A stretch of 64,000 bases of DNA from Patescibacteria group bacterium (GTDB lineage: Bacteria > Patescibacteriota > Patescibacteriia > Patescibacteriales > GWC2-42-12), in the NCBI GenBank assembly GCA_028707005.1, contig JAQTVB010000002.1, positions 121 through 64,120 of the forward strand. Direction: 5' to 3'. The position numbers and the translations under genes were made by a program. Shown piece after piece: positions 20,225-55,339 of the stretch. Positions within the stretch are counted from its first letter, which is position 1. Every line of letters starts with the position of its first letter. Under the pieces are notes generated by a model, which was given only the letters and a program-made list of their open reading frames with translations, was not told the origin of the DNA and made no database searches.

Positions 20225-20779
20225 ATGAACCAATACATCCAAGCCAAGCAGAATGATTTGACGAAAACAATTGATTTTTTTAAGAAAGACATTTCCGCCC
20301 TAAGAACCGGGCGGGCCAATCCGGCTATTTTAGACGGCGTTTTAGTTGAAGCCTATGGCGCTAAAACGCCAATTCTGGGGCTGGCCAGCGTGAGCGTGCC
20401 GGAAGCGCGCAGCATCGTGATTTCTCCTTGGGATAAAAGCATTATTAAAGACGTTGAAAGAGCGATCGTGGCCGCTGATTTGGGCATCAATCCGGTCAAT
20501 GAAGGCGATAAAATCAGGCTGGTTGTGCCGCAGTTGACCGAAGAAAACCGCCACGAACTGGTGAAGAAGTTGAGTGAAAAAATGGAGGTTTCCAGAATTT
20601 CTTTAAGGCAGACGAGAGATGAAATCAAAGAACTGATTGAAGCGGCTTTCAAGAATAAAGCCATTAACGAAGATGATAAATTTCGTTTCTTCAAAGAATT
20701 GGACGAAGAGATTTCCCGCAAGAATGATGAGCTGAAAAAAATTAAAGACAAAAAAGAAGAAGAAATTATGACGATCTAG
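20225..20779 (+). CDS. frr: ribosome recycling factor
   Basis: 184 aa. LRTGRANPAILD and LTEERR-like motifs are typical of RRF. Confidence 0.95.
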   Translation: MNQYIQAKQNDLTKTIDFFKKDISALRTGRANPAILDGVLVEAYGAKTPILGLASVSVPEARSIVISPWDKSIIKDVERAIVAADLGINPVNEGDKIRLVVPQLTEENRHELVKKLSEKMEVSRISLRQTRDEIKELIEAAFKNKAINEDDKFRFFKELDEEISRKNDELKKIKDKKEEEIMTI

Positions 20780-20786
20780 GCTGACT

Positions 20787-20969
20787 GTCATTGCGAGCGA
20801 AGCGAAGCAATCTCTGGTAAGAAAGACTAACCAATTAAATTCAAAATCTCTTTAAGTACAATCAAACATCTTAATTAGGCATTTCATTTATTATCGTTTT
20901 TCTTTCTGACCAGAGATTGCCACGCCGCCTTGTCCGCCTGTCAGCGGAACAAGGGCGGCTCGCAATGAC
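20787..20969. repeat. GTCATTGCGAG...CTCGCAATGAC palindromic element (copy a)
   Basis: The terminal arm gtcattgcgagcgaagcgaagcaatctctggt pairs with accagagattgc...ctcgcaatgac. The loop is AT-rich and the right arm holds an extra GCCGCCTTGT/ACAAGGGCGGC hairpin. Confidence 0.8.
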
Positions 20970-20988
20970 ATTTTAAAATTATTATTTT

Positions 20989-22299
20989 ATGTTTCTAACC
21001 ATAATCATTTTCATTATAGTTCTCTCTGTCCTAGTGTTCGCCCATGAGCTAGGGCATTTTATGATGGCCAGAAAATTCGGCGTTAAAGCCGAAGAATTCG
21101 GCTTGGGCTTTCCGCCCAGAGCTTTCGGCCTGCAGGTTTGGCGCGAGCGGAAATTAGAAAAAGTTTCCGAGGAAGAAGCGGTGGCGGTAAAACTTGAGGA
21201 CGCATCGCCGATGGGCGGAGCAACGATAATCAAAGAAACGATTATTGACGAGAAAAGAGAGATTGACATCTTGGGCTGGGTGAGAAAATTTAATTTCATC
21301 AAAGGCTCGCGGGAGATCAGCCCGGCGGAGCAAAGATACGGCACGGTTTATTCCATAAATTGGCTGCCTTTGGGCGGATTTGTGAAAATTAAAGGCGAGA
21401 ATGGCGAAGGCGAGAATGAAGCGGATAGCTTTGCCAGCCGTCCGATTTGGCAAAGGGCGTTGATGCTATCGGCCGGCGTGGTGATGAATGTGGCGCTGGC
21501 CATGATTTTAATCATTGTCGGCTTCATGGTCGGCTTGCCGCAGTCTCTGGATGGCTCTTCACTGGACGCGCGCGCGCAGGTGAGCGACCGCAAGATTCAG
21601 ATCGTTCAGGTGGTTAAGGGTTCGCCGGCCGAATCAGCCGCTTTGATTATCGGCGATACGATTATCAGCATAGATAACACGCAGTTTTCCGATTTTTCCG
21701 AATTGCAGAATTATGTGAATAATAAAATCGGGCAGCAGCTGGACTATAAAATAAAACGCGGCCAGGAGTTGATTGATGTAAAAATCGCGCCAATCATGAT
21801 GAGCGAGACCGGCCGGGGCGGCATCGGCGTCGCTTTAAGCGAGACCGGCATAGTAAGCTACCCTTGGTATTTGGCGATTCTTGAGGGCGTCAAGGCCACT
21901 TTCATTTTAGTTTGGGTGATTATCGCGGCGTTTTACGAACTGCTCAAAAGTTTGATTATGGGTCAGGGCGTAAGCGCGGATTTGGCCGGACCGGTGGGCA
22001 TCGCCACTTTGACCGGGGAAGTGGCGCGGATGGGTTTTGTTTACCTCATGCAATTTACGGCTTTATTATCCATTAATTTGGCGGTAATTAATTTTTTGCC
22101 TTTCCCGGCCCTGGACGGCGGGCGGGTGCTGTTTTTAATTATTGAGAAGATTAAAAGAAAGCCGGTTAAAAGGGAGGTGGAAGCGGTGATACATAATGTC
22201 GGCTTTATCCTGTTGATGGTGCTGGTGGTTTTGGTAACTTTCCGCGACGTGGCCAGATTCGGCGGAGTCTTTAAAGGGATTTGGGAGAAGATATTTTAA
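20989..22299 (+). CDS. rseP: RIP site-2 metalloprotease
   Basis: 436 aa. Contains the HELGH zinc motif, a central PDZ-like region and the NLLPFPALDGG motif. Confidence 0.9.
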   Translation: MFLTIIIFIIVLSVLVFAHELGHFMMARKFGVKAEEFGLGFPPRAFGLQVWRERKLEKVSEEEAVAVKLEDASPMGGATIIKETIIDEKREIDILGWVRKFNFIKGSREISPAEQRYGTVYSINWLPLGGFVKIKGENGEGENEADSFASRPIWQRALMLSAGVVMNVALAMILIIVGFMVGLPQSLDGSSLDARAQVSDRKIQIVQVVKGSPAESAALIIGDTIISIDNTQFSDFSELQNYVNNKIGQQLDYKIKRGQELIDVKIAPIMMSETGRGGIGVALSETGIVSYPWYLAILEGVKATFILVWVIIAAFYELLKSLIMGQGVSADLAGPVGIATLTGEVARMGFVYLMQFTALLSINLAVINFLPFPALDGGRVLFLIIEKIKRKPVKREVEAVIHNVGFILLMVLVVLVTFRDVARFGGVFKGIWEKIF

Positions 22300-22308
22300 T
22301 CACATAAT

Positions 22309-22484
22309 GTCATTGCGAGGAGCGTAGCGACGAAGCAATCTCTGGTAAGAAAAAAGACAATAAAAAGAAAATGCCGTAGATTGATGAATTAAATTTTGTT
22401 TAAAGAGATTAATTATTAAAATTAATTAGTATTTCTAACCAGAGATTGCTTCGTCGCCTTGAGTACAAGGCTTCTCGCAATGAC
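22309..22484. repeat. GTCATTGCGAG...CTCGCAATGAC palindromic element (copy b, loop inverted relative to copy a)
   Basis: The arm gtcattgcgaggagcgtagcgacgaagcaatctctggt pairs with accagagattgcttcgtcgcc...ctcgcaatgac. The reverse complement of its loop shares aatctctttaa and ggcatttc with the loop of copy a. Confidence 0.8.
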
Positions 22485-22500
22485 AATAACAATTTATTTT

Positions 22501-22845
22501 ATGATCTTAAACATCAAAGCCACGAATTTGGAATTGACGCCAAGACTTAAGGATTATGTGCAGCTAAAAATGGACATGCTGGAAAAATTTTTGGGCAATT
22601 TAAAAATTATTAGCGCGCATTTTGAAGTGGAGCGGACCACCAAGCATCATCTAAAGGGAGAAATTTACCGCGCTGAAGCCAATTTGGTGATAAACGGCGA
22701 TTTATTGCGCGTGGAAAAAACCGAAAAAGATGTCTTTAAGGCCGTGGACAAAGTAAAGGATCATCTGGATCTGGTGATAAAAAAATACAAGGATAAAATA
22801 ATCGGGCGTAAAAAGAAAAAAGAAAAGTTGGGGGCGATGATGTAA
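22501..22845 (+). CDS. hpf: ribosome hibernation promoting factor / RaiA family
   Basis: MILNIKATNLELTPRLKDYV... is a typical HPF N-terminus. The ORF-track start at 22459 runs through the repeat element, so I preferred the ATG at 22501. Confidence 0.85.
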   Translation: MILNIKATNLELTPRLKDYVQLKMDMLEKFLGNLKIISAHFEVERTTKHHLKGEIYRAEANLVINGDLLRVEKTEKDVFKAVDKVKDHLDLVIKKYKDKIIGRKKKKEKLGAMM

Positions 22846-22850
22846 AAAAA

Positions 22851-23118
22851 GAGCCTCTTTCAGCAGTGTTTGCTGATTGAGGCTTGAGTTTGGGTGTTTC
22901 GCCCTTCTTTACCGGCAGTAGACGCCGGTATGCGTTTTGGGGGTTAATAAGGTAACCCGTACCTTTCTTTGCAGGAGCGCCACACCGCTCCGGGAAACCA
23001 CTCGGGAGTCAGGACGGTCCAACCGTCACAGTAGTCTTCCATGAGCGACCCATAACGAGCAATGGCGCATGCATACTTGAGAACCGTAGTAAGTTTTCGC
23101 ATAGCATAGTTCGAAGGA
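22851..23118 (-). ncRNA. candidate structured RNA of unknown class (alternatively a 52-codon ORF at 22944-23102) in the G+C-rich hpf-secA spacer
   Basis: The region is visibly more G+C-rich than its flanks. It has several perfect local hairpins (GGAGCG/CGCTCC, GACGG/CCGTC, ACCGGC/GCCGGT). On the minus strand there is a TCGACT-17-TACAAT promoter-like pair near 23125-23155 and a T7-tailed terminator at 22852-22884. Confidence 0.3.
22852..22884. terminator. bidirectional hairpin terminator (strong T7 run on the minus strand)
   Basis: AGCCTC...GAGGCT outer stem with a CAGCA/TGCTG inner stem. An A7 run at 22844-22850 gives a U-tail for a minus-strand transcript. Confidence 0.6.
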
Positions 23119-23243
23119 ACCAGTAATATTGTATCATGTTTATTAGCATTAGTCGATATTCTTGAACTTGATTTTTTACCCGATTAATTATATGATTAAT
23201 CTGTTTTTATAATTATTCAGCACGCTCTTGCGTGTCTTTTAAT

Positions 23244-26200
23244 ATGAGTCTATTAGATAAAATTTTTGGCGATCCCAATGAAAAGATGGTAAAAATTTTG
23301 CGTCCGGTAGTGGAGCAAATCAATGCTTTGGAAAAAAAGTACCAGGTCATGAGCGACGAAGAGTTAAGGGTGCAGACCGCGGAGTTTAGAAAGAGATTGG
23401 GAGTGGAAAATACAATCCCCCAAACCCCCTTTATCAAGGGGGCAAATTTCGATGAAATTGAGAAAAAGTTAAAAGAAATTTTGCCGGAAGCGTTTGCCGT
23501 GGTGCGGGAAGCGGCTAAAAGAGTTTTAGGGCAAAGGCATTATGACGTCCAGCTAATGGGCGGCATGGTACTGCATCATGGGCAGATCGCGGAAATGAGA
23601 ACCGGCGAAGGAAAAACTTTAGTGGCGACTTTGCCGGCTTATTTGAACGCTTTGCCCGGCCGGGGCGTGCATGTGATTACGGTTAACGATTATCTGGCCA
23701 AGCGCGACGCCGAGTGGATGGGGCGCGTATACAGTTTTCTTGGATTGAGCGTTGGATGTATAACCCACGAGCAGGCGTTTAAATATAATTCTGTCCGGAA
23801 TGACCAAATCCCAATAACCAATAACCAAACAAATCCCAATGACCAAAATTCAAATGACCAAAATAACCTCCTTAATCCCTCCGCCTCGGCAAGCCGAAGG
23901 CGAGACGGGCCTTTGCAAGGAGGACAAGACGGTAAAATCCCCCTTACCCCCTTTGTCAAGGGGGAACTAACAGAAGTGCCGCGCAAAGAAGCCTATAATT
24001 GCGACGTGCTTTATGGCACGAACAATGAGTACGGTTTTGATTATCTAAGGGATAATATGGCGCCGGATCTTAAATCAATGGTGCAACGGAGCCTGAATTA
24101 TGCCATCGTTGATGAAGTTGACTCAATTTTGATTGATGAAGCGCGCACGCCTTTGATTATCAGTTCGCCGGCCGAGGAATCAACCGATAAATATTTTAAA
24201 TTTGCCGAATTGGTACAACGGCTGGTGGAGAATGAAGATTATAATGTTGACGAGAAAATGCGCGCCGCCACTTTAAGCGAAACCGGCATCGCCAAGATGG
24301 AAAAAATGATGGGCGTGGATAATATTTATACGAGCGGCGGCATTGCCGAAGTGCACCATATTGAGCAGGCTTTAAAAGCGCGGGTGCTTTTCAAGCGCGA
24401 TCGCGATTACGTGGTGAAGGACGGCGAAATTATCATCGTTGACGAATTCACCGGCCGGTTGATGTATGGCCGGCGCTATAGCGAGGGCCTGCATCAGGCG
24501 ATTGAAGCCAAGGAGCGAGTGGAGGTTCAGCGCGAATCGCTTACTTTAGCCACCATCACTTTCCAAAATTATTTCAGAATTTATAAAAAACTCGCGGGCA
24601 TGACCGGAACGGCCGTGACCGAAGCCGAAGAATTTTCCAAAATCTACAAATTGGAAACTGTGGTGATTCCCACAAATCGGCCGATGGCGAGAGAAGATTT
24701 GAATGACTTGATTTATCGGACCGAGATGGGAAAATTCAAAGCCGTAGTGGCCGAAGTCAAGCGCCGCCATGCTATCGGCCAGCCGGTTTTGACAGGCACG
24801 ATTTCCATAGAAAAGAATGAAACATTAGCGGAAATGCTTGCTAGAGAGGGAATTGTGCCGCAGGTTCTGAACGCCAAGCATCATGAGCAAGAAGCGCAAA
24901 TTATTTCTCAAGCCGGCAAGTTGGGAGCGGTGACGATCGCCACTAACATGGCCGGCCGCGGCGTAGATATTATGCTCGGGGGAGTGCCGCCAGATAAATT
25001 TCCGCCCAAGGCGGATCAGCCTCGGGCTGAAAAAATTAGCGAGGCTGAAAAGACAAAAGGTGAGGAATACGAAAAGTGGCGCAAGGAGTATGAAAAAGTC
25101 AAATCTTTGGGCGGTTTGCATATTATCGGCACGGAGCGGCATGAAGCCAGGCGCATTGATAATCAGCTTCGCGGCCGCGCCGGCCGCCAGGGCGATCCGG
25201 GGTCGTCCCAGTTTTATGTTTCCATGGAAGACGACTTGATGCGTATTTTCGGCGGCGACAGAATGAAAAATTTAATGGTTACCTTAAGAGTGCCTGAAGA
25301 TATGCCGATTGAAAATGGCCTGGTTTCGCGTTCCATTGAATCGGCGCAGACCAAGGTGGAAGGCAATAACTTTGATATCAGAAAGCACTTGGTGGAATAT
25401 GACGACGTGATCAATAAGCATCGAGAAACGATTTATCGGAAGCGGCGGGAAATTTTGGAACTGGCGGAAACTTCTGTCATCCCGGGCTTGACCCGGGATC
25501 CAGGTGTGCGTGACACGGAGATGGATTCCGGCTCGGAGGCCGGAATGACAAATAAGGGCGCGTCGGTGGAGGGTAAGAAAACTCTGTCTACCATAATCTT
25601 AGAAATGATCTTGAATGAAATTGAACAGGCGGTGATTTTTCATACGGCCGCCGATAGTTCTAAGGACTGGAATGTTAACGAGATTTTTCAGGTCATGTCC
25701 ACGATTTTTGTGGCGGATCAAAAATTAAAAGAAGAGCTCGCGGCTTTTGTTAAAGACGGCGACCCTTCGGCTGGCTCGGGGCAGGTCAAGCTGGATAAAG
25801 TAAAAGTAAGGACAAAAATCATTGAACACCTGGAAAAATTAATAAGAATCAATTATGAAAAAATCACCAAGCTGGCCGGCGAGGCTGGCATAAATTGGCG
25901 GCAGGTGGAAAAGGCGGTTTTGATCAGATCGATTGATATGCTCTGGATAGAGCATCTGGAAGCCATGGACCACATGCGCCACGGCATCGGCTTAAGAGGC
26001 TATGGCCAGCGCGATCCATTGATTGAGTATAAAAAAGAAGCCTATATTCTGTTTAATGAATTGAATAATTTAATTCAAAAACAAGTGGCATATTCAATTT
26101 TCAAGGTGGCTGATTTGGGCAATTTCGCCGTGCCGACCCTGAAGACGCGGCCGCAGAATTATATCGCGCCGGCAAAAACCATGGAAAAAAATAGCGGTTC

Positions 26201-26360
26201 GTTCGCCGCCTTCAAGCAAGCGGATAATGGAAAAAATAAAAATGACACCGTTGATTTGGTTCATGAAAAAGTGAAAGACGCCAGCGGCCAAAAAGTCGGC
26301 CGCAATGATCCCTGCCCCTGCGGCAGCGGAAAAAAGTTTAAGAAATGCCATGGGGCGTAA
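23244..26360 (+). CDS. secA: preprotein translocase ATPase SecA (long form with several in-frame repeat-derived insertions)
   Basis: Contains MRTGEGKTL Walker A, DEVDSILIDEARTPLIIS, TNMAGRGVDI and C-terminal GRNDPCPCGSGKKFKKCHG zinc finger. I preferred the ATG at 23244 (MSLLDKIFGD). Confidence 0.95.
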   Translation: MSLLDKIFGDPNEKMVKILRPVVEQINALEKKYQVMSDEELRVQTAEFRKRLGVENTIPQTPFIKGANFDEIEKKLKEILPEAFAVVREAAKRVLGQRHYDVQLMGGMVLHHGQIAEMRTGEGKTLVATLPAYLNALPGRGVHVITVNDYLAKRDAEWMGRVYSFLGLSVGCITHEQAFKYNSVRNDQIPITNNQTNPNDQNSNDQNNLLNPSASASRRRDGPLQGGQDGKIPLTPFVKGELTEVPRKEAYNCDVLYGTNNEYGFDYLRDNMAPDLKSMVQRSLNYAIVDEVDSILIDEARTPLIISSPAEESTDKYFKFAELVQRLVENEDYNVDEKMRAATLSETGIAKMEKMMGVDNIYTSGGIAEVHHIEQALKARVLFKRDRDYVVKDGEIIIVDEFTGRLMYGRRYSEGLHQAIEAKERVEVQRESLTLATITFQNYFRIYKKLAGMTGTAVTEAEEFSKIYKLETVVIPTNRPMAREDLNDLIYRTEMGKFKAVVAEVKRRHAIGQPVLTGTISIEKNETLAEMLAREGIVPQVLNAKHHEQEAQIISQAGKLGAVTIATNMAGRGVDIMLGGVPPDKFPPKADQPRAEKISEAEKTKGEEYEKWRKEYEKVKSLGGLHIIGTERHEARRIDNQLRGRAGRQGDPGSSQFYVSMEDDLMRIFGGDRMKNLMVTLRVPEDMPIENGLVSRSIESAQTKVEGNNFDIRKHLVEYDDVINKHRETIYRKRREILELAETSVIPGLTRDPGVRDTEMDSGSEAGMTNKGASVEGKKTLSTIILEMILNEIEQAVIFHTAADSSKDWNVNEIFQVMSTIFVADQKLKEELAAFVKDGDPSAGSGQVKLDKVKVRTKIIEHLEKLIRINYEKITKLAGEAGINWRQVEKAVLIRSIDMLWIEHLEAMDHMRHGIGLRGYGQRDPLIEYKKEAYILFNELNNLIQKQVAYSIFKVADLGNFAVPTLKTRPQNYIAPAKTMEKNSGSFAAFKQADNGKNKNDTVDLVHEKVKDASGQKVGRNDPCPCGSGKKFKKCHGA
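23414..23442. repeat. 29-nt repeat with CCCCCTT/AAGGGGG hairpin inside secA (copy 1)
   Basis: aatcccccaaaccccctttatcaaggggg, translated IPQTPFIKG. Confidence 0.7.
23798..23880. repeat. low-complexity aatgaccaaatcccaat-type repeat tract inside secA
   Basis: Encodes NDQIPITNNQTNPNDQNSNDQNN. The 16-mer aatgaccaaatcccaa (23799-23814) is identical to 41535-41550 in an intergenic palindrome. Confidence 0.7.
23936..23964. repeat. 29-nt repeat with CCCCCTT/AAGGGGG hairpin inside secA (copy 2)
   Basis: aatcccccttaccccctttgtcaaggggg, translated IPLTPFVKG. It is a direct repeat of 23414-23442. Confidence 0.7.
25476..25549. repeat. GTCAT...ATGAC palindromic element inserted in-frame in secA
   Basis: gtcatcccgggcttgacccgggatcc...ggattccggctcggaggccggaatgac has the same architecture as the intergenic element at 31013-31089. 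It is translated as VIPGLTRDPGVRDTEMDSGSEAGMT. Confidence 0.7.
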
Positions 26361-26390
26361 TGGTGAATTATGAATAATGAATTATGAATT

Positions 26391-26579
26391 ATGGAAAAAG
26401 AAATTTTTGAAAAAGAAATTGCGATGTGCAAAAAATTATCAAAAAAGAACGGCGGCCAATGCAATTGGGGTGAATGCGAAAAATGCGGCGTTATACCCTT
26501 ATTGCATAAGTTGTTTTACGGTAAAGTTTATGAAAAGATAGATGAAACAAAGGAACTAAAGCGAACCACGTTACAATAA
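26391..26579 (+). CDS. small Cys-containing hypothetical protein
   Basis: 62-aa ORF (…CKKLSKKNGGQCNWGECEKCG…) between secA and a NUDIX gene. No family recognised. Confidence 0.4.
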   Translation: MEKEIFEKEIAMCKKLSKKNGGQCNWGECEKCGVIPLLHKLFYGKVYEKIDETKELKRTTLQ

Positions 26580-26631
26580 ATACTGTTGGACGTAGGGAGA
26601 GTGTAAATTATGAATTAAGAATTAAGTCATT

Positions 26632-27096
26632 ATGTCTAAAGAATATTATAAAAATTTGCCAAAGAAAAGAATGGGCGCGGGGGCGTTAATTTTGAATGAA
26701 AAAGGCGAAATACTTATCGTGAAGCCGAACTATAAAGATCATTGGACCCTGGCTGGCGGAGTCGTAGGCGAGAATGAATCGCCAAAAGAGGCCTGTTTAA
26801 GAGAGATAAAAGAGGAAATCGGCCTAAAATTCAAAGATGTAAAATTTTTGTGCGTAGATTATACGCGCGATAAAGGCGATAAAGGCGAAAGTTTACAGTT
26901 TATATTTTATGGCGGAGTTATAAGCAAAAGCGCAGTTAAAAACATAAAGCTGGACGGCGAGGAAATCGTTGAATATAGATTTGTAAAAATTGGCGACGCC
27001 TTGCCGATGCTTAACGAGAAATTAAGAATAAGATTACCAAAGTGTTTAGACGCATTAAAAAATAATACAGCGATTTATCTTGAAAATGGCAAATAA
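26632..27096 (+). CDS. NUDIX hydrolase
   Basis: 154 aa. Nudix box GGVVGENESPKEACLREIKEEIGL. Confidence 0.85.
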   Translation: MSKEYYKNLPKKRMGAGALILNEKGEILIVKPNYKDHWTLAGGVVGENESPKEACLREIKEEIGLKFKDVKFLCVDYTRDKGDKGESLQFIFYGGVISKSAVKNIKLDGEEIVEYRFVKIGDALPMLNEKLRIRLPKCLDALKNNTAIYLENGK

Positions 27097-27107
27097 TCTT
27101 GTTGGTC

Positions 27108-27155
27108 AAGTTCGCAATGACGGAGAAATCTGGATTCCCGCCTACGCGGGAATGA
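27108..27155. repeat. fragmentary right arms of the GTCAT/ATGAC palindromic element families
   Basis: ttcgcaatgac followed by ggattcccgcctacgcgggaatgac. No matching left arms are nearby. Confidence 0.5.
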
Positions 27156-27253
27156 CAATCACCTGCCTCTTGATTTAATTTTCAATTTAAATTAAAATGT
27201 AATATAAGAGAAGTAATTACTTATACGCCCGGTTTCGGGCGCTATCTTAATTT

Positions 27254-29452
27254 ATGTCCGATAACATTCTACAGAATTTATTCAACCCCAGCCCCCGCGG
27301 CAAAATAAAGTGGATTTTTGTTTTAATAATTATTTTGGCCATCACCGCCTCGCTGATTGATTTTGGCGATTATTATAATAAGGCGGTGGATAAATTTAAA
27401 ATTCCTTTCCCCAAAGTCAAGGAAATTCCTTTTAGGCTGGGCCTGGATTTATTGGGCGGCACGCAGCTCACTTATCAGGCCGATGTTTCGGCGATCGCGG
27501 CCGCAGACAAGGGGAGCGCGGTGGAAGGCGTTAGAGATGTGATTGAAAGAAGGGTTAATACGTTCGGCGTTAGCGAACCCAATGTGCAGATCAATCGAAC
27601 GACTTCGGGCGATTACCGCATCATCGTGGAATTAGCCGGCATTAAAGATATCAAGCAGGCCATTACCATGATCGGCGAAACTCCGCTTCTGGAATTTAAA
27701 GAGCAGAATACGGAAATCAGAAAAATAACAGATGAGGAAACCAAGCAATTAAATGATTATAATAAAGCGGCGGAAAAGCGCGCTACCGAAGTTTTAGGCA
27801 AAGTAATTTCCGGCGGCGATTTCAGCGCCCTGGCGAAAACTTACAGCGAAGACGCGGCGACAAAAGATCGGGGCGGCGATTTGGGCTGGATTACGGAGCA
27901 GAGTAATTCCGCGATATACAATTTAGCGAGTAAAATCGCGGTGGGAAAAACCAGCGCTGATTTGGAAAAAGTAAGCGGCGGCTATGAAATTATAAAAGTT
28001 GAAGATAAACAGGCAAAAACCGATGCTTTTACCAAGGCGGAAGAAACCCAGGTGAAAGCCTCGCATTTGTTGATTTGCTGGACCGGCATTAGCAATTGCG
28101 AAAGCGGTTTGACTAAAGAGCAGGCTTTGGAAAAAATTACCAGACTGAAGGAGCAGGCGACGACGGCCAATTTTAAGGATTTGGTCAAGCAGAATTCCAC
28201 CGAGCCTAACGCGCGCGATACGGGCGGCGATTTGGGCTGGTTTGCGAAAGATATGATGGTTAAAGCGTTCGCGGACGCGGTTTTCGCGCAGAAAGTAGGC
28301 GCGATTTCCGGTCCGGTGGAAACCGAATTCGGCTATCATCTGATTTATAAGCAAGATGAGAAGAAAATAGAAGAATTGAAAGTAAGCCATATTTTTATAA
28401 AAATCAAAACCGAAGAAGATATCATCGGCAAGCAGAGCGAATGGAAGAATACCGAACTTACCGGTAAGAACTTGAAATCAGCGGCCGTGGAATTTGATTC
28501 CAATAGCGGTTCGCCGGAAGTAGCTTTAACCTTTGATGATGAAGGCGCAAAATTATTTGAGACTATTACCGAACGCAACATAAATAAGCCGGTGGCGATT
28601 TATCTTGACGGCTACGCCATCAGCGTGCCCACGGTCAATGAAAAAATTACCGGCGGCAAAGCGGTGATTTCCGGAAAGTTTAATATTACCGAAGCTAAAT
28701 TGCTGGCGCAAAGGCTGAACGCCGGAGCTTTACCGGTGCCGATTAACCTGGTTAATCAGCAAACCGTGGGCGCGAGCCTGGGGCAACAATCGGTGGCAGA
28801 CAGCCTTAAGGCCGGCTTAATCGGTTTTATAATCATCGCCTTATTTATGATTGTTATTTATAGATTGCCCGGGTTGATGGCGGTTCTGGCCTTAGCGGTT
28901 TATAGCTTGCTGGTTTTTGCCTTATTTAAGATCGGTTTTTCCATGGCGGCCTTGGTTTTGGTCGGGGCTTTTCTGATTATCGGCATCACGGTGAATGGTT
29001 GGTTTCTGGTATTTGCCTTTTTGAGTTATATCGTTTTGTATTTTATCGGCGGTTTGGCGCCGGTTACTTTAACTTTAGCCGGCTTGGCCGGAGCCATCGT
29101 TTCAGTGGGCATGGCCGTGGATGCCAATATTTTGATTTTTGCCCGTTTACGCGAAGAAATTATCAATGGCAAACCGCTATCTTCAGCCTTGGACGACGCT
29201 TTTAAGCGCGCCTGGCCGTCAATCAGGGACAGTAATTTCAACACGCTGATCACTTGCTTGATTTTGATCATGTTCACTACCAGCGCGGTCAAAGGTTTTG
29301 CCGTGACCTTGGGCTTGGGCGTTATTATTTCCATGTTCACCGCGATTTTCATCACCAGAAATTTCTTGAGCTTGATTCCGCCGACTTGGCTGGAAAAGCG
29401 GCACGCTTTGATCACGTCGGTGAAAGCGCCGAAGCCTTCGGATAATGAATAG
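27254..29452 (+). CDS. secD: protein-export membrane protein SecD carrying two parvulin-type PPIase domains in its periplasmic head
   Basis: 732 aa. SecD N-terminal TM, LGLDLLGG and C-terminal 6-TM core. Residues ~155-395 contain two copies of the parvulin signature (GGDLGWI... and GGDLGWF...FGYHLI). Confidence 0.85.
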   Translation: MSDNILQNLFNPSPRGKIKWIFVLIIILAITASLIDFGDYYNKAVDKFKIPFPKVKEIPFRLGLDLLGGTQLTYQADVSAIAAADKGSAVEGVRDVIERRVNTFGVSEPNVQINRTTSGDYRIIVELAGIKDIKQAITMIGETPLLEFKEQNTEIRKITDEETKQLNDYNKAAEKRATEVLGKVISGGDFSALAKTYSEDAATKDRGGDLGWITEQSNSAIYNLASKIAVGKTSADLEKVSGGYEIIKVEDKQAKTDAFTKAEETQVKASHLLICWTGISNCESGLTKEQALEKITRLKEQATTANFKDLVKQNSTEPNARDTGGDLGWFAKDMMVKAFADAVFAQKVGAISGPVETEFGYHLIYKQDEKKIEELKVSHIFIKIKTEEDIIGKQSEWKNTELTGKNLKSAAVEFDSNSGSPEVALTFDDEGAKLFETITERNINKPVAIYLDGYAISVPTVNEKITGGKAVISGKFNITEAKLLAQRLNAGALPVPINLVNQQTVGASLGQQSVADSLKAGLIGFIIIALFMIVIYRLPGLMAVLALAVYSLLVFALFKIGFSMAALVLVGAFLIIGITVNGWFLVFAFLSYIVLYFIGGLAPVTLTLAGLAGAIVSVGMAVDANILIFARLREEIINGKPLSSALDDAFKRAWPSIRDSNFNTLITCLILIMFTTSAVKGFAVTLGLGVIISMFTAIFITRNFLSLIPPTWLEKRHALITSVKAPKPSDNE

Positions 29453-29475
29453 TTTAATTATTAATTAATAAAGTT

Positions 29476-29694
29476 ATGAAATCACCAGAAATTGGCACAT
29501 CAGCCACTGAAAAGTTAGTGGTTGGATCAAGGGTCGAAGGCTTTCATAATCAAGTGATTGCCAGGGGGAAAATAATTGATGAAAAACTTGCAGAAACTGG
29601 AGGCCGTCAATTTAGAGTTCGGTGGGATAATCCTAGTCATGGCGAAGCTGATTGGTTTAATGAAAGCGAATTAAAGGATGTCAGCAATCAATAA
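29476..29694 (+). CDS. small hypothetical protein between secD and secF
   Basis: 72-aa ORF. It may have an SH3/Tudor-like beta fold by composition. No motif recognised. Confidence 0.35.
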   Translation: MKSPEIGTSATEKLVVGSRVEGFHNQVIARGKIIDEKLAETGGRQFRVRWDNPSHGEADWFNESELKDVSNQ

Positions 29695-29701
29695 TCAATT
29701 T

Positions 29702-30604
29702 ATGACTAACTTCAAAATAATTCAAAAACGCAACATTTGGCTAACGATTTCCGGAATTTTATTCGCAGTATTCGTGGCAGCCCTATTTTTATGGGGTTTT
29801 AAGTACGGCATTGATTTTACCGGCGGCAGTTTATTGGAATTAACCTACGAGGGCCAGCGGCCGACAGTAGAGCAGGTTGAATCAAGCTTGGCGGATTTGA
29901 AATTAAGCAGTTTCATTATTCAGCCGGTCGGCGAGCAGGATATGCTTTTGAAGTTTCAGGAAACCATGGAGGAAACTCATCAAGCAATTTTAAGCAGATT
30001 GGCCAATTTGGCGAAGCAAGATAATACCACTTTTCTAGAGCAGAGATTTGATTCGGTCGGCCCGTCAATTGGCGCCGAGCTAAAAGTAAAATCTCTCTGG
30101 GCCATATTTTTCGCGTTGATAGCCATGCTGATTTACATCACTTACGCTTTTAGAAAAGTTTCTCGGCCGGTAGCTTCCTGGAAATACGGTCTGTCCGCGA
30201 TTTTGGCCATGTTCCATGATGCGGTCATTACTATGGGCGTATTCGCCTTTTTAGGGCATTTCTACGGCGTGGAAATCAATACGCCCTTTGTGGCCGCGCT
30301 GTTAACCGTTATTGGCTATTCAATACATGATACGATCGTGGTCTTTGACCGCATCCGCGAGAATTTGCCAAAAAGCGATTTGGATTTTGAGGGAACGGTA
30401 AATGTAAGCTTGAACCAAACCATCGGGCGTTCGCTCAATACTTCCATGACCGTACTGTTGGTGTTGCTGTCTATTATTATTTTCGGCGGCGCCAGCATCA
30501 GAACTTTTGCCCTGGCTTTGGCAGTCGGAATTTTCATCGGCACTTATTCGTCTATTTTCGTAGCGCCGCCGCTGCTCGTCATCTGGGAAAAGTGGAAAAA
30601 GTAG
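29702..30604 (+). CDS. secF: protein-export membrane protein SecF
   Basis: Contains GIDFTGG, a 6-TM core and HDTIVVFDRIREN. The ATG at 29702 avoids overlap with the upstream small ORF. Confidence 0.9.
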   Translation: MTNFKIIQKRNIWLTISGILFAVFVAALFLWGFKYGIDFTGGSLLELTYEGQRPTVEQVESSLADLKLSSFIIQPVGEQDMLLKFQETMEETHQAILSRLANLAKQDNTTFLEQRFDSVGPSIGAELKVKSLWAIFFALIAMLIYITYAFRKVSRPVASWKYGLSAILAMFHDAVITMGVFAFLGHFYGVEINTPFVAALLTVIGYSIHDTIVVFDRIRENLPKSDLDFEGTVNVSLNQTIGRSLNTSMTVLLVLLSIIIFGGASIRTFALALAVGIFIGTYSSIFVAPPLLVIWEKWKK

Positions 30605-30674
30605 CCCGATATTGTTTCAATTCTATTTAAATGATATTATTGTTAATATGCGATAGGGCAAATATAATAAATTT

Positions 30675-30893
30675 ATGACATTAAGTCCGGAACAATTCAA
30701 TAAGCTAGTTACTAAAGACGAATTCAATGAATTAAAGACAGAGATTAAAGAAATGGGTGCCAATGTTAAGAGAATTCTGACGGGCGTTGATGGTATCGCT
30801 AAAAAGCATCAAACCTTTGAGGTTGAATTGACCGCTAATCAAGCGGCTCACGATCGTTTTGAAGAAAGAATAAAAGTGCTTGAAGAAAAATAA
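30675..30893 (+). CDS. small coiled-coil hypothetical protein
   Basis: 72-aa ORF, followed by a terminator. Confidence 0.4.
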   Translation: MTLSPEQFNKLVTKDEFNELKTEIKEMGANVKRILTGVDGIAKKHQTFEVELTANQAAHDRFEERIKVLEEK

Positions 30894-30901
30894 AATCAGA
30901 T

Positions 30902-30936
30902 AAAAAACAACGTCAGTTTTAGAGGTTGTTTTTTAT
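30902..30936 (+). terminator. rho-independent terminator
   Basis: AAAAAACAAC/GTTGTTTTTT 10-bp stem ending in a T-run. Confidence 0.6.
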
Positions 30937-31012
30937 TGAAAAAAATTTTGACAAAGCAGGCGATTTTAAGGTAAACTAAAGGAGTGATTTGCCATTGCGA
31001 ACGACTTTTTTT

Positions 31013-31089
31013 GTCATTCCCGCGAAAGCGGGAATCCAGAGTTGTATGCTCTAGCCATGTTTCTGGATCCCCGCTTTCGCGGGGATGAC
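31013..31089. repeat. GTCATTCCCGCGAAAGCGGGAATCC...GGATCCCCGCTTTCGCGGGGATGAC palindromic element in the mreB leader
   Basis: Each arm is itself a hairpin (CCCGCgaaaGCGGG). A TTGACA-18-TAAACT promoter-like pair lies upstream at 30948-30977. Confidence 0.75.
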
Positions 31090-31101
31090 AATACAACTTT
31101 A

Positions 31102-32145
31102 ATGTTTAATAAATTTTTTGGAAAATTTTCTAAAGATTTGGGCATTGACTTGGGTACGGCTAATACTTTGGTTTATACGCCGGACAAGGGGATTGTAATA
31201 AACGAACCGTCGGTGGTGGCGGTTAATTTGCGCACCGACGAGATTTTATGCGTGGGCACGGAAGCGAAAAAAATGCTCGGGAAAACCCCGCCCCATATTC
31301 AGGCGATTAAACCGCTGGTGGACGGCGTGATTTCGGATTTTGAAGTGACGGAAAAAATGCTTAAATATTTCATTGACAAAGTACACTCGGAATATTTTAC
31401 TTTAGTGCCGCGTCCCAGGGTGATAATCGGCATACCGCTGGACATCACCGAAGTGGAGAAAAAAGCGGTTGAAGACGCGGCCAAATCCGCCGGCGCGCGT
31501 GAAGTTTTTTTAATTGAGCAATCCATGGCCGCGGCCATCGGCAGCCGCCTGGATGTGACCGGAGCCCTGGCCACGATGATCGTTGATATCGGCGGCGGCA
31601 CGACCGAAATCGCGGTGATTTCCTTGGGCGGGGTGGTGACCTGGAAAACTTTGCGCCTGGCCGGCAACGCCATTGATAATGACATTATCCAGTACGTGCG
31701 CGAGGAATTTAATATTTTAATTGGCGAACAAGTGGCGGAAAATATAAAGATTAAAATCGGCTCGGCCGCGCCGTTAAAAGAATCAATGGAAATGCCTCTT
31801 CGGGGCCGCGATTTGATTAATGGCTTGCCCAAAGAAGTAATCATCACCGACAGCCAGGTGAGGGAAGCGATGCAGAGAATTATCCGCCAGATTATAGAGA
31901 ATATCAAAATCACTTTGGAAACCACGCCGCCGGAGCTGGTTTCTGATATTTATGGCCATGGCATAGTTTTGACCGGCGGCAGCGCGTTGCTTAGAGGATT
32001 GGACAAGGAGATCGCCCAAGCCACGAAAATTCCGGTAAGAGTGGCCGAAGATCCGCTTACTTGCGTGGTAAGGGGAACCGGCATTTTGCTTAGCGACCCC
32101 GAGCTCTTAGCCAAGGTTCTATCGCCGGCGACGGAAGAATATTAG
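31102..32145 (+). CDS. mreB: rod-shape-determining actin homologue MreB
   Basis: DLGIDLGTANTLVY, DIGGGTTEIAV and GIVLTGGSALLRGL. The ORF-track start at 31042 reads through the repeat, so I preferred the ATG at 31102. Confidence 0.95.
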   Translation: MFNKFFGKFSKDLGIDLGTANTLVYTPDKGIVINEPSVVAVNLRTDEILCVGTEAKKMLGKTPPHIQAIKPLVDGVISDFEVTEKMLKYFIDKVHSEYFTLVPRPRVIIGIPLDITEVEKKAVEDAAKSAGAREVFLIEQSMAAAIGSRLDVTGALATMIVDIGGGTTEIAVISLGGVVTWKTLRLAGNAIDNDIIQYVREEFNILIGEQVAENIKIKIGSAAPLKESMEMPLRGRDLINGLPKEVIITDSQVREAMQRIIRQIIENIKITLETTPPELVSDIYGHGIVLTGGSALLRGLDKEIAQATKIPVRVAEDPLTCVVRGTGILLSDPELLAKVLSPATEEY

Positions 32146-32147: not shown

Positions 32148-32262
32148 TAATTTTTAATTTTCAAATACCAATTTTCAATGAATTTTTAATGTTATAATTT
32201 TCAATTGAAAATTAGATAATTGGTCATTCATTAAAAATTGAAAATTGTAAATTGAAAATTAG
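32148..32262. repeat. AT-rich intergenic palindrome (aattttcaat family)
   Basis: The centre taattttcaattgaaaatta is a perfect palindrome, flanked by imperfect inverted arms. Confidence 0.6.
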
Positions 32263-32288: not shown

Positions 32289-33119
32289 ATGGTAAAATTG
32301 AACGTGAAAAAATATACAACCATTATCGCTGTCATTGCGCTGCTTATTTTTTTGCATTATGCCAAAATATTATCTCCCCTGGAATTATACTTAAATCAAG
32401 GGCTAAGGCCAATTTATAAAATATTCTATTCAGTGAGCTCCAACATAAAACAAACATATCAAAGTCAGACTGATAAAACCGATCTGGCTTCAGAATTGAA
32501 TCAGGCTCGCGAAACCATCAACCGCTTGATGGCCGAGAACGTTGAATTGAGGTTTTTGGAAAAAGAAAATCAGGTTCTCCGCGAACAATTGAATTTTTTA
32601 TCAAAAAATAATCGGCGTTATGTAATGGCTAACATTATCTCTCGCGGCGATTTGGAGAATGGTGCGAAAAACAGCCAGGCGGTGGTAATTGACAAGGGAC
32701 TAAAAGACGGTTTATCGCCAGGCCTGGCGGTAGTAAGCGCGTCAAGCCTAGCCACTTCCAGCCGGGGAGTAATTATCGGAAAAATTTCCAATGTTAAGGA
32801 TGATATTTCCGAGATTCGCCTGGTGACTGACGAAAAATGTAAATTAGCCGCCGCTATTTTAGGAGATAATAAGACCATCGGCGTTACCAGTGGGGAGCTG
32901 GGATTAACGATAAAAATGGATTTTATTCCGCAGACGGAAAATATCAAAGCCGGGGATTTGGCGGCCACTTCCGGCCTGGAGCAGAATATACCGCGCGGCT
33001 TGCTTATTGGCCGGGTAGTAAAAGTTGATAAGGAAAATAATCAAGTTTGGCAAAGCGCGATTATCGAGCCGCAAATCGGTTTGGATTCTTTGTCGGTAGT
33101 TTCGGTTTTATTGCCATAA
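32289..33119 (+). CDS. mreC: rod-shape-determining protein MreC
   Basis: 276 aa. N-terminal TM, coiled coil (ENVELRFLEKENQVLREQL) and a C-terminal beta-rich domain. It lies directly after mreB. Confidence 0.8.
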   Translation: MVKLNVKKYTTIIAVIALLIFLHYAKILSPLELYLNQGLRPIYKIFYSVSSNIKQTYQSQTDKTDLASELNQARETINRLMAENVELRFLEKENQVLREQLNFLSKNNRRYVMANIISRGDLENGAKNSQAVVIDKGLKDGLSPGLAVVSASSLATSSRGVIIGKISNVKDDISEIRLVTDEKCKLAAAILGDNKTIGVTSGELGLTIKMDFIPQTENIKAGDLAATSGLEQNIPRGLLIGRVVKVDKENNQVWQSAIIEPQIGLDSLSVVSVLLP

Positions 33120-33120
33120 T

Positions 33121-33296
33121 AAATATAATCCGAATACTACAAATAAATATAATCCGAATATTACGAATTAATATGCGAATACTACAAAAGAATGCAAAAT
33201 GCGAAAAAGATAAATGCCGCAATTGTTAGATATTTGTAGTATTCGGATAATTTTTGTAGTATTTGAATTATATTTATTTGTAGTATTCGGATTCCA
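33121..33296. repeat. long AT-rich intergenic palindrome (aatccgaatactacaaa / tttgtagtattcggatt family)
   Basis: The left arm has three ccgaata(c/t)tac motifs. The right arm has three inverted copies. Confidence 0.7.
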
Positions 33297-33299
33297 TTT

Positions 33300-34244
33300 A
33301 TGCTTATAGAGAAAATAATCAAAAAGAATTACGATTTGACGTCTTTAACAACTTTCCGCATTGGCGGCAGGGCTGAATTTTTTGTGGCCATAAAAAACAA
33401 GCGGGAATTAACACAAGCCATCAACTGGGCGAGAGCGAAAAAATTACCAACATCATTTTTGGGCGGTGGCAGCAATATTTTAATTACTAGCCGTAAAATT
33501 CGCGGTTTGGTTATAAAAATCGGCGGAGAAAATTATTCCATAACGGGAAATATAGTATCAAGCTGGTCCGGTACCGGTTTAACCAGACTGGCAAAGATTA
33601 CCTACAATCATGGTTTATCCGGCTTGGAATGGGCGCTGGGAATTCCGGGAAGTATCGGCGGGGCCGTGCGCGGCAACGCCGGAGCTTACGGCAGCGATAT
33701 CTCCAGAAATGTCGCCCAAGTGGAAGCGTATGACATAGCTAAGAACAGGCTGATAACATTAAAATTACGAGCCTGTGATTTTGCTTACCGGGATTCTGTT
33801 TTTAAGCAAAATAATAATTTAATAATCGTTAATGTTAAATTAGCCTTAACTAAAGGCAATACGGAGGAAATAAAACGCCAGGCCAAAAATAATTTCCACC
33901 AGAGGCTGGCGAATCACCCCAAAGAGCCAAGCGCTGGCTGTGTTTTTAAAAATTTGGAATACGCGAAAATCGCGGAGCAAAATAAGAAATTGGCCGAAAA
34001 ACTGCTGGCCGAAGGCTTGTTTAGAGGCAATAAAATCGGCGCAGCTTATTTTATAGATCAGCTGGGGCTTAAGAGTGAAGTGAGGGGCGGCGCTAGAATT
34101 AGTGAGAAACATGCTAATTTTATAATCAATGCCGGCGGAGCTAAGGCAAGAGATGTAATTAGCCTGATAAGTTTTATTAGAAAAAAAGTTAAAGAAAAAT
34201 ACAAAATTAATTTAGAGGAGGAAGTCCAATATTTTGGAAATTAG
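33300..34244 (+). CDS. murB: UDP-N-acetylenolpyruvoylglucosamine reductase
   Basis: 314 aa. FAD-binding domain (FLGGGSNIL) and C-terminal GGARISEKHANFIIN. Confidence 0.9.
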   Translation: MLIEKIIKKNYDLTSLTTFRIGGRAEFFVAIKNKRELTQAINWARAKKLPTSFLGGGSNILITSRKIRGLVIKIGGENYSITGNIVSSWSGTGLTRLAKITYNHGLSGLEWALGIPGSIGGAVRGNAGAYGSDISRNVAQVEAYDIAKNRLITLKLRACDFAYRDSVFKQNNNLIIVNVKLALTKGNTEEIKRQAKNNFHQRLANHPKEPSAGCVFKNLEYAKIAEQNKKLAEKLLAEGLFRGNKIGAAYFIDQLGLKSEVRGGARISEKHANFIINAGGAKARDVISLISFIRKKVKEKYKINLEEEVQYFGN

Positions 34245-37402: not shown

Positions 37403-37470
37403 GAATTATGAATAATAAATCAAGTATCAGGGAAATTACCATAATTCATTATTTATAATTCATAATTCAT
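37403..37470. repeat. AT-rich palindrome (attatgaat / attcataat family)
   Basis: gaattatgaataataaat...ataattcattatttataattcataattcat. Confidence 0.55.
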
Positions 37471-37474
37471 ATTT

Positions 37475-39103
37475 ATGCCAGACAATATAACCGTCTTCGC
37501 GGAAACGAATTTTCGCAATCAACATAGAAAATTCGGCATTAAAACCGACGATCGCCGCCGGCACATGTATTTAGTGGGAAAAACCGGCATGGGCAAATCC
37601 ACTATTTTGGAGAATATGATTATTGATGATATCAGGGCGGGCAATGGCGTAATGGTGGTGGACCCGCACGGCGATTTGGCGGAAAAAATTATTGAATATA
37701 TACCGAATAATCGGGTAAATGACGTAATTTATTTCAACCCGGCGGATATTGAATATCCGATCGCCTTTAACGTGGTGGAGCAGGTAGAACCGCATCTAAG
37801 GCATTTGGTCGCTTCCGGCCTGATCGGAGTTTTTAAAAAGCTTTGGGCCGATTCTTGGGGGCCGCGCTTGGAATATATTTTGCGCAATGCCATTTTGGCG
37901 ATTTTAGATTATCCCGGTTCAACTTTGCTGGCGGTTATCAGAATGCTGTCGGATAAAAATTTTCGGAAAAAAGTTATTGAAAAAATTCAGGACCCGGTGG
38001 TTAAATCTTTTTGGGTTAATGAGTTCGCCGGCTATGCCAATAATTTCGCTTCCGAAGCGGTTTCGCCGATTCAGAATAAGGTCGGGCAGTTTTTGTCAAG
38101 CGCCTTGATTAGGAATATCGTCGGTCAGGTGAAATCGACCATTGATTTAAGGGAAGTCATGGATAGCGGCAAAATTTTGATTTTAAATTTGAGTAAAGGC
38201 CGAATCGGTGAAGACAATTCTTCTCTGCTTGGCGCCATGATGATCACTAAAGTCCAGCTGGCGGCCATGAGCCGGGTTGATGTTTTAGAGAAAAAACGCC
38301 AGGATTTTTATCTTTACATCGATGAATTCCAGAATTTTACCACCGAAAGTTTCGCCAATATTTTATCCGAAGCCAGGAAATATAGGCTGAATTTAATAAT
38401 GGCCCATCAGTATATTGAACAGCTTGGGGAAATCGTAAAACCGGCGGTTTTCGGCAATGTGGGCACCATAATAGTTTTCCGAGTAGGCGCGGCTGACGCG
38501 GAGGAATTAGTCAAAGAATTTACGCCTGTTTTTTTAGAGGAAGATCTGGTTAACCTGTCTAAGTATGAATTTTACATCAAACTCATGATTGACGGTGTTT
38601 CCTCCGATCCTTTTTCCGCCCGTGGTCTGCCGCCTTTAACCGAAGCGGAAAAAACCAGTAATAAAGACAAGGTTATAAAAGTATCGCGCGAGAGGTACGC
38701 CAAGCAACGGGCGGTAGTTGAAGAGAAAATTTTTCGCTGGCACGAAAATAAAGATGAACCGGCCGGCGATAAAAGGGAACCGGAGAGAAATCAGCATGCG
38801 GAAAGAAATCAGCGCCGCGAGGATCAGCCGCGTCCGGAGCGGCGGGGAAGCGCGCGGCAAAATGCCGCCCCAATCGCGCGTAAAGAAAATACGACTAAAA
38901 CTCCTCTTGGCGGCGGCCAATCAGATGCGAAAAAATATGAAGCGGTTTGCAGCCGTTGCGGCCAGACCACCGAAGTATCTTTTACGCCCGACGGCATCAG
39001 GCCGATTTTCTGCAAAGATTGCTTGATTTTAATTAAAGATGAGAAAAAGAAGGACATAGAAGCCAGATTGGCGGCTAAAAAACAGGAGTTGTCTAAATTG
39101 TAA
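37475..39103 (+). CDS. TraD/TraG/VirD4-like (type IV coupling-protein-like) P-loop ATPase with a basic tail and C-terminal zinc ribbon
   Basis: Walker A GKTGMGKS, Walker B-like FYLYIDEFQNF and C-terminal CSRCG...FCKDC. Confidence 0.65.
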   Translation: MPDNITVFAETNFRNQHRKFGIKTDDRRRHMYLVGKTGMGKSTILENMIIDDIRAGNGVMVVDPHGDLAEKIIEYIPNNRVNDVIYFNPADIEYPIAFNVVEQVEPHLRHLVASGLIGVFKKLWADSWGPRLEYILRNAILAILDYPGSTLLAVIRMLSDKNFRKKVIEKIQDPVVKSFWVNEFAGYANNFASEAVSPIQNKVGQFLSSALIRNIVGQVKSTIDLREVMDSGKILILNLSKGRIGEDNSSLLGAMMITKVQLAAMSRVDVLEKKRQDFYLYIDEFQNFTTESFANILSEARKYRLNLIMAHQYIEQLGEIVKPAVFGNVGTIIVFRVGAADAEELVKEFTPVFLEEDLVNLSKYEFYIKLMIDGVSSDPFSARGLPPLTEAEKTSNKDKVIKVSRERYAKQRAVVEEKIFRWHENKDEPAGDKREPERNQHAERNQRREDQPRPERRGSARQNAAPIARKENTTKTPLGGGQSDAKKYEAVCSRCGQTTEVSFTPDGIRPIFCKDCLILIKDEKKKDIEARLAAKKQELSKL

Positions 39104-42158: not shown

Positions 42159-42243
42159 ATTTTTAATAAATAAGAAATCCACCGGCGTAGCCGGTCGTCC
42201 ACGGTTTCCTCTTGCGGACGAAGTCAGTTTATTCTTTCTTTTT

Positions 42244-42351: not shown

Positions 42352-42439
42352 AAAAATGGGGAGAATGCAGAATAGCCATGTTTAGCTAAAGGACATAGTC
42401 CGTGCCGGATTTAATTCCACCGACAGGGTCGGTGGTAGT

Positions 42440-54955: not shown

Positions 54956-54971
54956 ATGTAGCTAAATTAAT

Positions 54972-55310: not shown

Positions 55311-55339
55311 ATTGATAAAAGATAAATTTATTTGGCTAT

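Follow-up and report, generated by a model that had tools for sequence, protein, structure and literature searches.

How does a palindromic repeat come to be read as part of an essential protein? This question is raised by secA in a 64,000-nt stretch (hereafter, the window) of contig JAQTVB010000002.1 from a Patescibacteria group bacterium (assembly GCA_028707005.1), in which a 74-nt near-palindrome at positions 25476–25549 lies within the gene. We consider it probable (about 0.8) that a non-autonomous palindromic repeat of the NTS/SRM kind, mobilized via hairpins of single-stranded DNA (ssDNA), was inserted here in frame, and that the encoded peptide is a passenger loop. NTS is one of the Ssn-related motifs (SRM; Nat Commun 2025, PMC11893778). 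The initial annotation of the window had likened the element to the palindromic elements of Rickettsia (RPEs), and an RPE-like reading is supported by the analysis described here.

A translated doublet of hairpin units

The open reading frame (ORF) hosting the element spans 1042 codons on the plus strand (23232–26360), with a probable annotated start at ATG 23244. Its Pfam matches (SecA_DEAD at 4.6e-124, P-loop_SecA, SecA_SW, PP_bind, and SEC-C) identify the product as SecA. The protein is 100% identical to the NCBI entry 'MAG: SecA [Patescibacteria group bacterium]' (MAG, metagenome-assembled genome). Its 120 best relatives are all SecA, and those with a named source come almost entirely from Patescibacteria/Parcubacteria or from unclassified 'bacterium' MAGs; the assignment to the Candidate Phyla Radiation (CPR), which had been left conditional, thus holds. 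The ORF is uninterrupted across the element (...ETSVIPGLTRDPGVRDTEMDSGSEAGMTNKG...), which is translated in frame, as had been claimed, into 25 extra residues in the context ELAETS-VIPGLTRDPGVRDTEMDSGSEAGMT-NKGASVEG. These correspond to V745–T769 of the annotated 1038-aa protein (P0001) counted from ATG 23244, and the tryptic peptides of the insert region are DTEMDSGSEAGMTNK and EILELAETSVIPGLTR.

The element has the sequence GTCATCCCGGGCTTGACCCGGGATCCAG-GTGTGCGTGACACGGAGA-TGGATTCCGGCTCGGAGGCCGGAATGAC and consists of two inverted 28-nt hairpin units separated by an 18-nt spacer; its coordinates, its termini (GTCAT at 25476–25480 and ATGAC at 25545–25549), and the G+C hairpin in each arm agree with the earlier description. 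The left unit (25476–25503, plus strand) reads GTCAT-CCCGGG-cttga-CCCGGG-ATCCAG, while the right unit (25522–25549), read on the minus strand, is GTCAT-TCCGGC-ctccga-GCCGGA-ATCCA; on the plus strand, the two arms appear as CCCGGG-cttga-CCCGGG and CCGGC-tcggag-GCCGG. The spacer (25504–25521) has a small stem of its own, GTGT...ACAC. Both arms contain a perfect 6-bp G+C stem, with GTCAT at its outer and ATCCA at its inner side, and follow the same oriented grammar, GTC + (AT-stem-loop-stem-AT) + C. An 86-nt stretch with the element forms a single long hairpin when folded (−41.9 kcal/mol, z = −4.0), and the G+C content of the element is 64.9%, versus 47.2% in the remaining part of secA.

Units of the same type are found elsewhere in the window. 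An intergenic 77-nt doublet is located 5' of mreB (31013–31089), and its left unit, GTCATTCCCGCGAAAGCGGGAATCCAG, equals the Neisseria NTS consensus CGTCATTCCCGCGMAVGCGGGAATCYRG letter for letter, except for the base before GTCAT. A single unit is located between a NUDIX gene and secD (27131–27156, minus strand), adjoining a fragment, GTTCGCAATGAC (27110–27121), of a second repeat family headed by GTCATTGCGAG, which suggests nesting or a chimera. Of the two intergenic copies to which the initial annotation ascribed the architecture of the secA element, the one at 31013–31089 is indeed a full doublet, while the one given as 27121–27155 is the single unit only. The spacers of the doublets in the window are 18–23 nt long.

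The resemblance among these copies is statistically significant, as the earlier comparison had implied. The pattern GTCATN{0,1}CCSGSN{5,12}GGRATCCA has five matches in the window (25476+, 25549−, 27156−, 31013+, and 31089−) versus 0.00 in 100 dinucleotide shuffles, although it was derived from the same five units that it matches. The independent test was provided by the published SRM consensus, HGTCWYN(0-2)YYVSBRHN(0-5)WNVSBRGN(0-2)RNCYNB (PMC11893778), which matches four of the five units (25475–25503, the secA left arm; 27130–27157; 31012–31039; and 31063–31090), where 0.07 matches are expected from simulations. A scan of the window with the general grammar GTC + AT-palindrome-AT + C gave 12 matches against 0.79 in simulations, and the secA left arm is identical at 26 of 26 positions to copies on Novosphingobium and Sphingobium plasmids. 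No Rfam family was found at the gathering threshold in the whole window. Judged by sequence grammar and by copy number in the window, the repeat family is not private to this lineage and is the NTS/SRM hairpin family of PMC11893778. Members of that family, including the Neisseria dRS3 core, share the same oriented hairpin (GTC at the 5' side, a palindrome of the ATTCCC...GGGAAT type, and C at the 3' side) and occur in many copies across phyla. The copies described here differ from them in forming tight inverted doublets, in that one is translated inside an essential gene, and in their patescibacterial host.

These statistics also bear on a much simpler account, according to which an ancestral SecA linker resembles the repeats by chance or the element is an artifact of metagenome assembly. 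The element is known from one MAG, and repeats can cause mis-assembly. Nevertheless, chance resemblance is excluded by the pattern counts, the SRM consensus, and the 26/26 match; both flanks keep the secA frame; the gene order frr-rseP-hpf-secA-...-secD-secF-mreB is kept in the relatives examined; and independent assemblies of relatives hold analogous in-frame elements. The element is also shorter, at 74 nt, than a typical short read. We therefore regard chance or artifact as highly improbable. Motif statistics, orthologue comparison, and continuity of frame and synteny accordingly led us to reject three readings: a palindrome arisen by chance, a SecA loop that is conserved, and a faulty assembly.

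The junction of scaffold helix and wing domain in SecA relatives

The claim that SecA has no counterpart residues at this place was borne out by comparison with orthologues. HMMER alignments to the SecA proteins of E. coli and M. tuberculosis, both with solved structures, are continuous as far as query residues 739–746 and resume, within the wing or scaffold domain, at 801/884. When the 60 closest relatives were aligned with MAFFT, a segment of very variable length with no counterpart peptide appeared between the conserved blocks ...RKRREILELAE and ...LSxIILEMIENEIEQ. Among the 97 relatives parsed at this junction, out of the 120 best sampled, 23 have a short linker only, and just one other, P0035, carries an NTS-type insert, which is 130 nt long and structurally different from that of the window. 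By alignment, the junction corresponds approximately to E. coli SecA residues 664–667, which we take to be the boundary between the scaffold helix (HSD) and the helical wing domain (HWD). AlphaFold2, run with 74 orthologues, places a helix at 712–745, a coil at 745–776 with a pLDDT score below 50, and the next helix at 781–800; in this prediction the insert is a disordered loop that follows the long helix of the scaffold and precedes the first helix of the wing domain, in line with the surface loop that had been anticipated.

At least 45 relatives carry other repeat-derived peptides at exactly the same junction, including those of the VIARSE...ARND, VILEPKAIES...MT, NPKSQIPNPKQ, and PPLNLPLNKGE types. 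At the DNA level, four of six relatives (L001, L002, L003, and L133) each have a different GTCAT...ATGAC palindrome at the same codon position, with a second in-frame unit in L002 within the variable region of nucleotide-binding domain 2 (NBD2); in the remaining two (L134 and L135), the junction is empty. In many relatives, it is filled by the GTCATTGCGAG family. Filled and empty junctions occur in pairs with core identities of 94.7% (P0044/P0045) and 95.2% (P0016/P0022), P0008 and P0011 (93%) hold different repeat families, and P0039 and P0040 differ in a 19-residue repeat segment despite being 99.8% identical. Because close relatives differ in their filled or empty state, insert turnover is fast relative to protein divergence, and since among close relatives the same junction may hold another family or be empty, inserts are frequently gained, lost, or replaced. 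The HSD/HWD junction of SecA is a permissive hot spot for several repeat families and more than a one-off; the simplest reading is that a few SecA loops tolerate insertions.

The same comparisons raise the possibility that the insert came by recombination, whether through the exchange of hypervariable cassettes, through gene conversion or template switching at the GTCAT/ATGAC ends, or through natural transformation. Different families occupy an identical position and frame (GTC ATx, that is, Val-Ile) in the window, L002, L003, and L133; the linkers of P0016 and P0025 are identical over 43 residues while their cores are only 91.9% identical; and the flanking linker itself differs between the filled and empty alleles of L133 and L134. 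It is also known that Neisseria NTS repeats modulate the recombination of transforming DNA (PMC11893778). Recombination, however, leaves the arrival of the first copy unexplained, and no donor allele is visible, as none of the 120 relatives sampled shares the insert type, bar the structurally different P0035. We consider this origin unlikely; it is in any case compatible with, rather than exclusive of, the insertion of an NTS/SRM-type repeat.

A further alternative is that the loop, or the hairpin in mRNA or DNA, is functional and kept by selection, whether as a surface loop peculiar to the SecA of this lineage, as a pause site in translation, or as a regulated site of ssDNA cleavage. The strong fold (z = −4.0) agrees with this, as do the perfect 6-bp stems, which are retained in both arms despite non-canonical sequences and look compensatory. 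The stems are, however, explained by source copies, namely the identical sphingomonad 26-mer for one arm and a GGGCTTGACCC core present in Parcubacteria L125. Moreover, relatives thrive without the insert or with unrelated ones, the region is predicted to be disordered, and inserts diverge faster than the core, with 7 differences in 45 linker-plus-insert positions between P0021 and P0026, whose cores are 97.9% identical. Functional retention therefore seems improbable to us.

Apart from the element, the window SecA contains more in-frame segments (23418–23447, 23799–23965, 24996–25079, and 25764–25787), which are absent from most orthologues and disordered in the AlphaFold2 model. Two hairpins within secA, CCCCCTTTATCAAGGGGG and CCCCCTTTGTCAAGGGGG, are translated as PQTPFIKGA and PLTPFVKGE, AATGACCAAA repeats in a row encode an NDQ-rich peptide, and the other extra segments include an insert in the NBD2 variable region and a PSAGSGQV segment. 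These segments give the window SecA the look of a mosaic of loops derived from repeats. Immediately 5' of the secA ORF, the 386 nt at 22846–23231 are non-coding, with no Rfam match and no convincing ORF.

Known repeat systems and the proposed mobilization step

The hairpins of NTS/SRM repeats are bound and cut, solely as ssDNA, by small GIY-YIG nucleases called Ssn (cd10448), of which SsnA was tested on NTS; the bases 5' of the palindrome and the 3' C of NTS are important. It was also reported that ssn genes are often bordered by the motif 'like an IS' and that SRM-rich genomes include those of Rickettsia, Wolbachia, Neisseria, and sphingomonads (PMC11893778).

Similar arrangements were found in other phyla. 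Four IMG/VR loci retrieved by an NTS-type pattern (L038, L091, L094, and L106) contain GIY-YIG ORFs (Pfam PF01541, 1.4e-15) that are bordered by NTS units, the adjacency being read from N-terminal repeat-derived peptides and from the match positions in L038. Homologues with 45–47% identity from Bacteroidota, Thermodesulfovibrio, and Melioribacteraceae have units of the GTCATTGCGAG or GTCATTCCGAG type within a few bases, and the GTCATTGCGAG family flanks Ssn-like GIY-YIG genes in L262 and L264. When the intergenic doublet was compared by BLAST with plasmids, two in-frame cases appeared, both in Alphaproteobacteria. A 79-nt NTS doublet lies in frame in an uninterrupted, PGAP-annotated ileS (the isoleucyl-tRNA synthetase gene) of Sphingopyxis indica pMC4 (L256 3501–3579; NYL-RHPRESGDPERASANPTLDSRFRGND-KDW), and an 83-nt doublet lies likewise in frame in an uninterrupted, PGAP-annotated rbbA of Azospirillum lipoferum (L257 3501–3583).

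Two observations concern the Ssn-like genes themselves. In Thermodesulfovibrio sp. CP144373.1 (L263 1000–2350), such a gene stands amid about 14 alternating GTCATTCCGAG...GAGGAATC units, which together resemble a BIME cluster. In the protein database, many of the Ssn-like homologues come from contigs of less than 2 kb, which is to be expected where flanking repeats break assemblies.

With respect to known systems, the secA element resembles an RPE in its behavior, as a tolerated, translated, and selfish palindrome, and a REPIN in its structure, as a doublet of NTS/SRM units. It shares with RPEs (Ogata et al. 2000/2002, as in PMC10969869) the occurrence of a palindromic repeat in intergenic DNA as well as, in frame, within genes that are unrelated or essential, the tolerance at surface loops, and a host with a reduced genome. 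It differs from them in its size (74 nt versus about 100–150 nt), in the competition of several families for one site, and in that no RPE family in NCBIfam matched its peptide. While the RPE-like behavior claimed in the initial annotation is thus supported, the independence of this example from the RPEs is not established, and a link may exist, since Rickettsia is listed among the SRM-rich genomes (PMC11893778). With REP/REPIN sequences, which depend on RAYT enzymes of the Y1/HUH type (PMC3337134), the element and its relatives share singlets and inverted doublets of an imperfect palindrome around a short spacer, the fold into a long hairpin, and the lack of a target-site duplication; the single-copy enzyme gene flanked by units is matched by the Ssn-like genes in other phyla. 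The head is GTAG in REPs and GTCAT here, the associated enzyme is a Y1 transposase in the former and a GIY-YIG nuclease in the latter, and REPs are extragenic, whereas this copy is intragenic. Classical MITEs (miniature transposable elements with inverted repeats), such as Correia, ERIC, RUP, and Nezha, are likewise small and non-autonomous, have inverted termini, and are occasionally intragenic with an open frame. In contrast to these, no target-site duplication is present at the copies examined here (five full window elements, four orthologous secA inserts, and the ileS and rbbA copies), and no DDE-transposase parent was found. The lack of duplications argues that an ssDNA-hairpin mechanism, as in REPIN or IS200-IS605, fits better than that of a DDE-type MITE. 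All that marks the flanks of these copies is a richness in T to the left and in A to the right.

In the proposed mechanism, copies would spread through ssDNA hairpin intermediates, on which an enzyme specific for hairpins would act in trans; the most plausible candidate is a GIY-YIG ssDNA nuclease of the Ssn type whose gene lies in another part of the genome or was once there. Selection would then keep only those insertions that are in frame, in which the TGA of ATGAC is not read as a stop, and that fall in loops tolerating about 25 extra residues, while the inserted peptide would be a passenger with no required function. We infer the mobilization step in this lineage, because neither an Ssn gene nor a transposase gene was found in the window or in about 80 kb of DNA from relatives, and no CPR Ssn emerged from the search described below.

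Several points weigh against the insertion of a mobilized NTS/SRM repeat. The first concern the enzyme. No Ssn/GIY-YIG gene was found in the 64-kb window by regular expressions, an inventory of small ORFs, Pfam, or a hidden Markov model (HMM) built from the NTS-flanked Ssn ORFs, and neither Ssn/GIY-YIG, RAYT, nor other transposase genes were found in the roughly 80 kb from relatives. A search for a CPR Ssn with an AT-rich probe composed from conserved columns returned no CPR-labelled protein among the best 120 of 8000 GIY-YIG proteins. In the literature, the mobilization of NTS/SRM by Ssn is a hypothesis and has not been demonstrated (PMC11893778, Discussion). The other points concern the element itself, which is carried by a single MAG. 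Its two arms are different subtypes, with 15 of 24 terminal positions complementary, and the right arm (25522–25549) fails the strict SRM expression, though its grammar is the same. A length of 74 nt is not divisible by 3, which calls for an extra base at the event or for later remodelling of the linker. The nearest orthologue has 76% full-length identity (about 84% over aligned columns) and hence provides no nucleotide-level empty site for the event in the window, and neither a target-site duplication nor a clean boundary can be read from the filled and empty alleles of L133 and L134, whose flanking linkers differ too.

Further searches for an enzyme were also negative within their ranges. 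The HMM had no Ssn match in L001–L003 or in L125, L127, and L131; no transposase-type gene was present among 21 ORFs scanned with Pfam (secA, 20225–32145, and 54222–63243); and no Ssn was seen in 24 kb of Parcubacteria GW2011_GWC2_42_12. The window represents about 6% of the genome, if the latter measures about 1 Mb, a size typical for CPR. A profile scan of viral contigs for Ssn returned near relatives only, and 120 IMG/VR loci with GTCATTGCGAG units are ordinary phage contigs in which GIY-YIG ORFs are lacking and no nuclease or transposase recurs. An NCBIfam scan with a 39-aa insert query (E<=10) gave no RPE model and only a chance match to TraO, a short query having weak power and the presence of RPE models in the collection being unconfirmed. 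In an incomplete coverage of the literature, nothing relevant was found on these repeat-derived peptides (RGNDG, FAGMT, and others) or on MITE, REP, or palindromic elements in CPR; the term 'in-frame' occurs 0 times in PMC11893778, where coding insertions are not mentioned.

Other features of the window and meaning of the insertion

Other GTCAT...ATGAC families are present in the window. Two elements of the GTCATTGCGAG...CTCGCAATGAC type, 176–183 nt long and with AT-rich cores, lie one on each side of rseP, between frr and rseP (20787–20969) and between rseP and hpf (22309–22484). A third family, GTCATCTTGAG... (GTCATCTTGAGTGGAGCG...), is represented by a 108-nt element at 42244–42351, between the ORFs 41706–42158 and 42554–42955; it is probably intergenic, though within a mechanically called 118-aa ORF (42019–42375), and the secA insert of L003, of the VILEPKAIES type, is related to it. 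Parcubacteria GW2011_GWC2_42_12, a relative found via a 21-mer common to both GTCATTGCGAG copies, has the same families. As all of them share the grammar GTC + AT-palindrome-AT + C, they plausibly form one superfamily, with a cognate nuclease for each. Distinct from these G+C-rich GTCAT families are the AT-rich repeats of the GAATTATGAATAATGAA and TACGAATT types, which form long imperfect palindromes between genes (26365–26417, 37403–37479, and 48836–48922; 32148–32261; 33119–33301; 46818–46940).

Other observations concern neighboring genes. In SecD (27254–29452), PpiC-type rotamase (peptidyl-prolyl isomerase) domains are inserted after the N-terminal P1 segment and before the P1 head, as they are in every relative examined (L001, L003, and L133–L135). 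A motif of about 43 nt (core AACGTATC...ATA..CG.AG.T) occurs five times (55338–55380, 57825–57867, 58856–58898, 61829–61871, and 63394–63436) and may be a shared promoter or operator: four of the five copies lie just 5' of a minus-strand gene (a small HNH-like ORF, NUDIX, NAPRTase, and one unknown), and the copy at 55338 falls within the first codons of the longest ORF of a tRNA-binding-domain gene. The tRNA-Ile(GAT) at 62557–62643 was called at 87 nt, about 10 nt over the usual length, and the region 62.3–64.0 kb has no convincing ORFs.

What is new about the secA element is the CPR host and the coding context of an already known kind of repeat, the phenomenon itself being known from Rickettsia. 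The notion of selfish DNA inside the genes of essential proteins is thereby extended from Rickettsia to the Candidate Phyla Radiation. A broader proposal can be put forward only tentatively, namely that GTCAT-headed hairpin repeats (NTS/SRM and their sisters) are pan-bacterial 'coding palindromes', that RPE-like behavior is general to Ssn-associated repeats, that the surface loops of essential proteins in Patescibacteria are continually rewritten, and that the HSD/HWD junction is a site of target preference. If this were true, five to six repeat-rewritten sites would exist in SecA alone.

The behavior of a coding palindrome is here connected with a family of repeats whose cognate enzyme, the Ssn ssDNA nuclease, was characterized only in 2025, which makes the mechanism testable. 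For uncultivated bacteria, pairs of filled and empty alleles at 95–99.8% identity provide a natural system in which repeat dynamics can be measured, and the multi-family hot spot in SecA, together with the in-frame NTS doublets in other phyla, is most worth following up. In CPR proteins such as SecA, repeat-derived, disordered segments with fast turnover inflate protein length, break alignments and phylogenies, and seed spurious ORF families, and should be masked.

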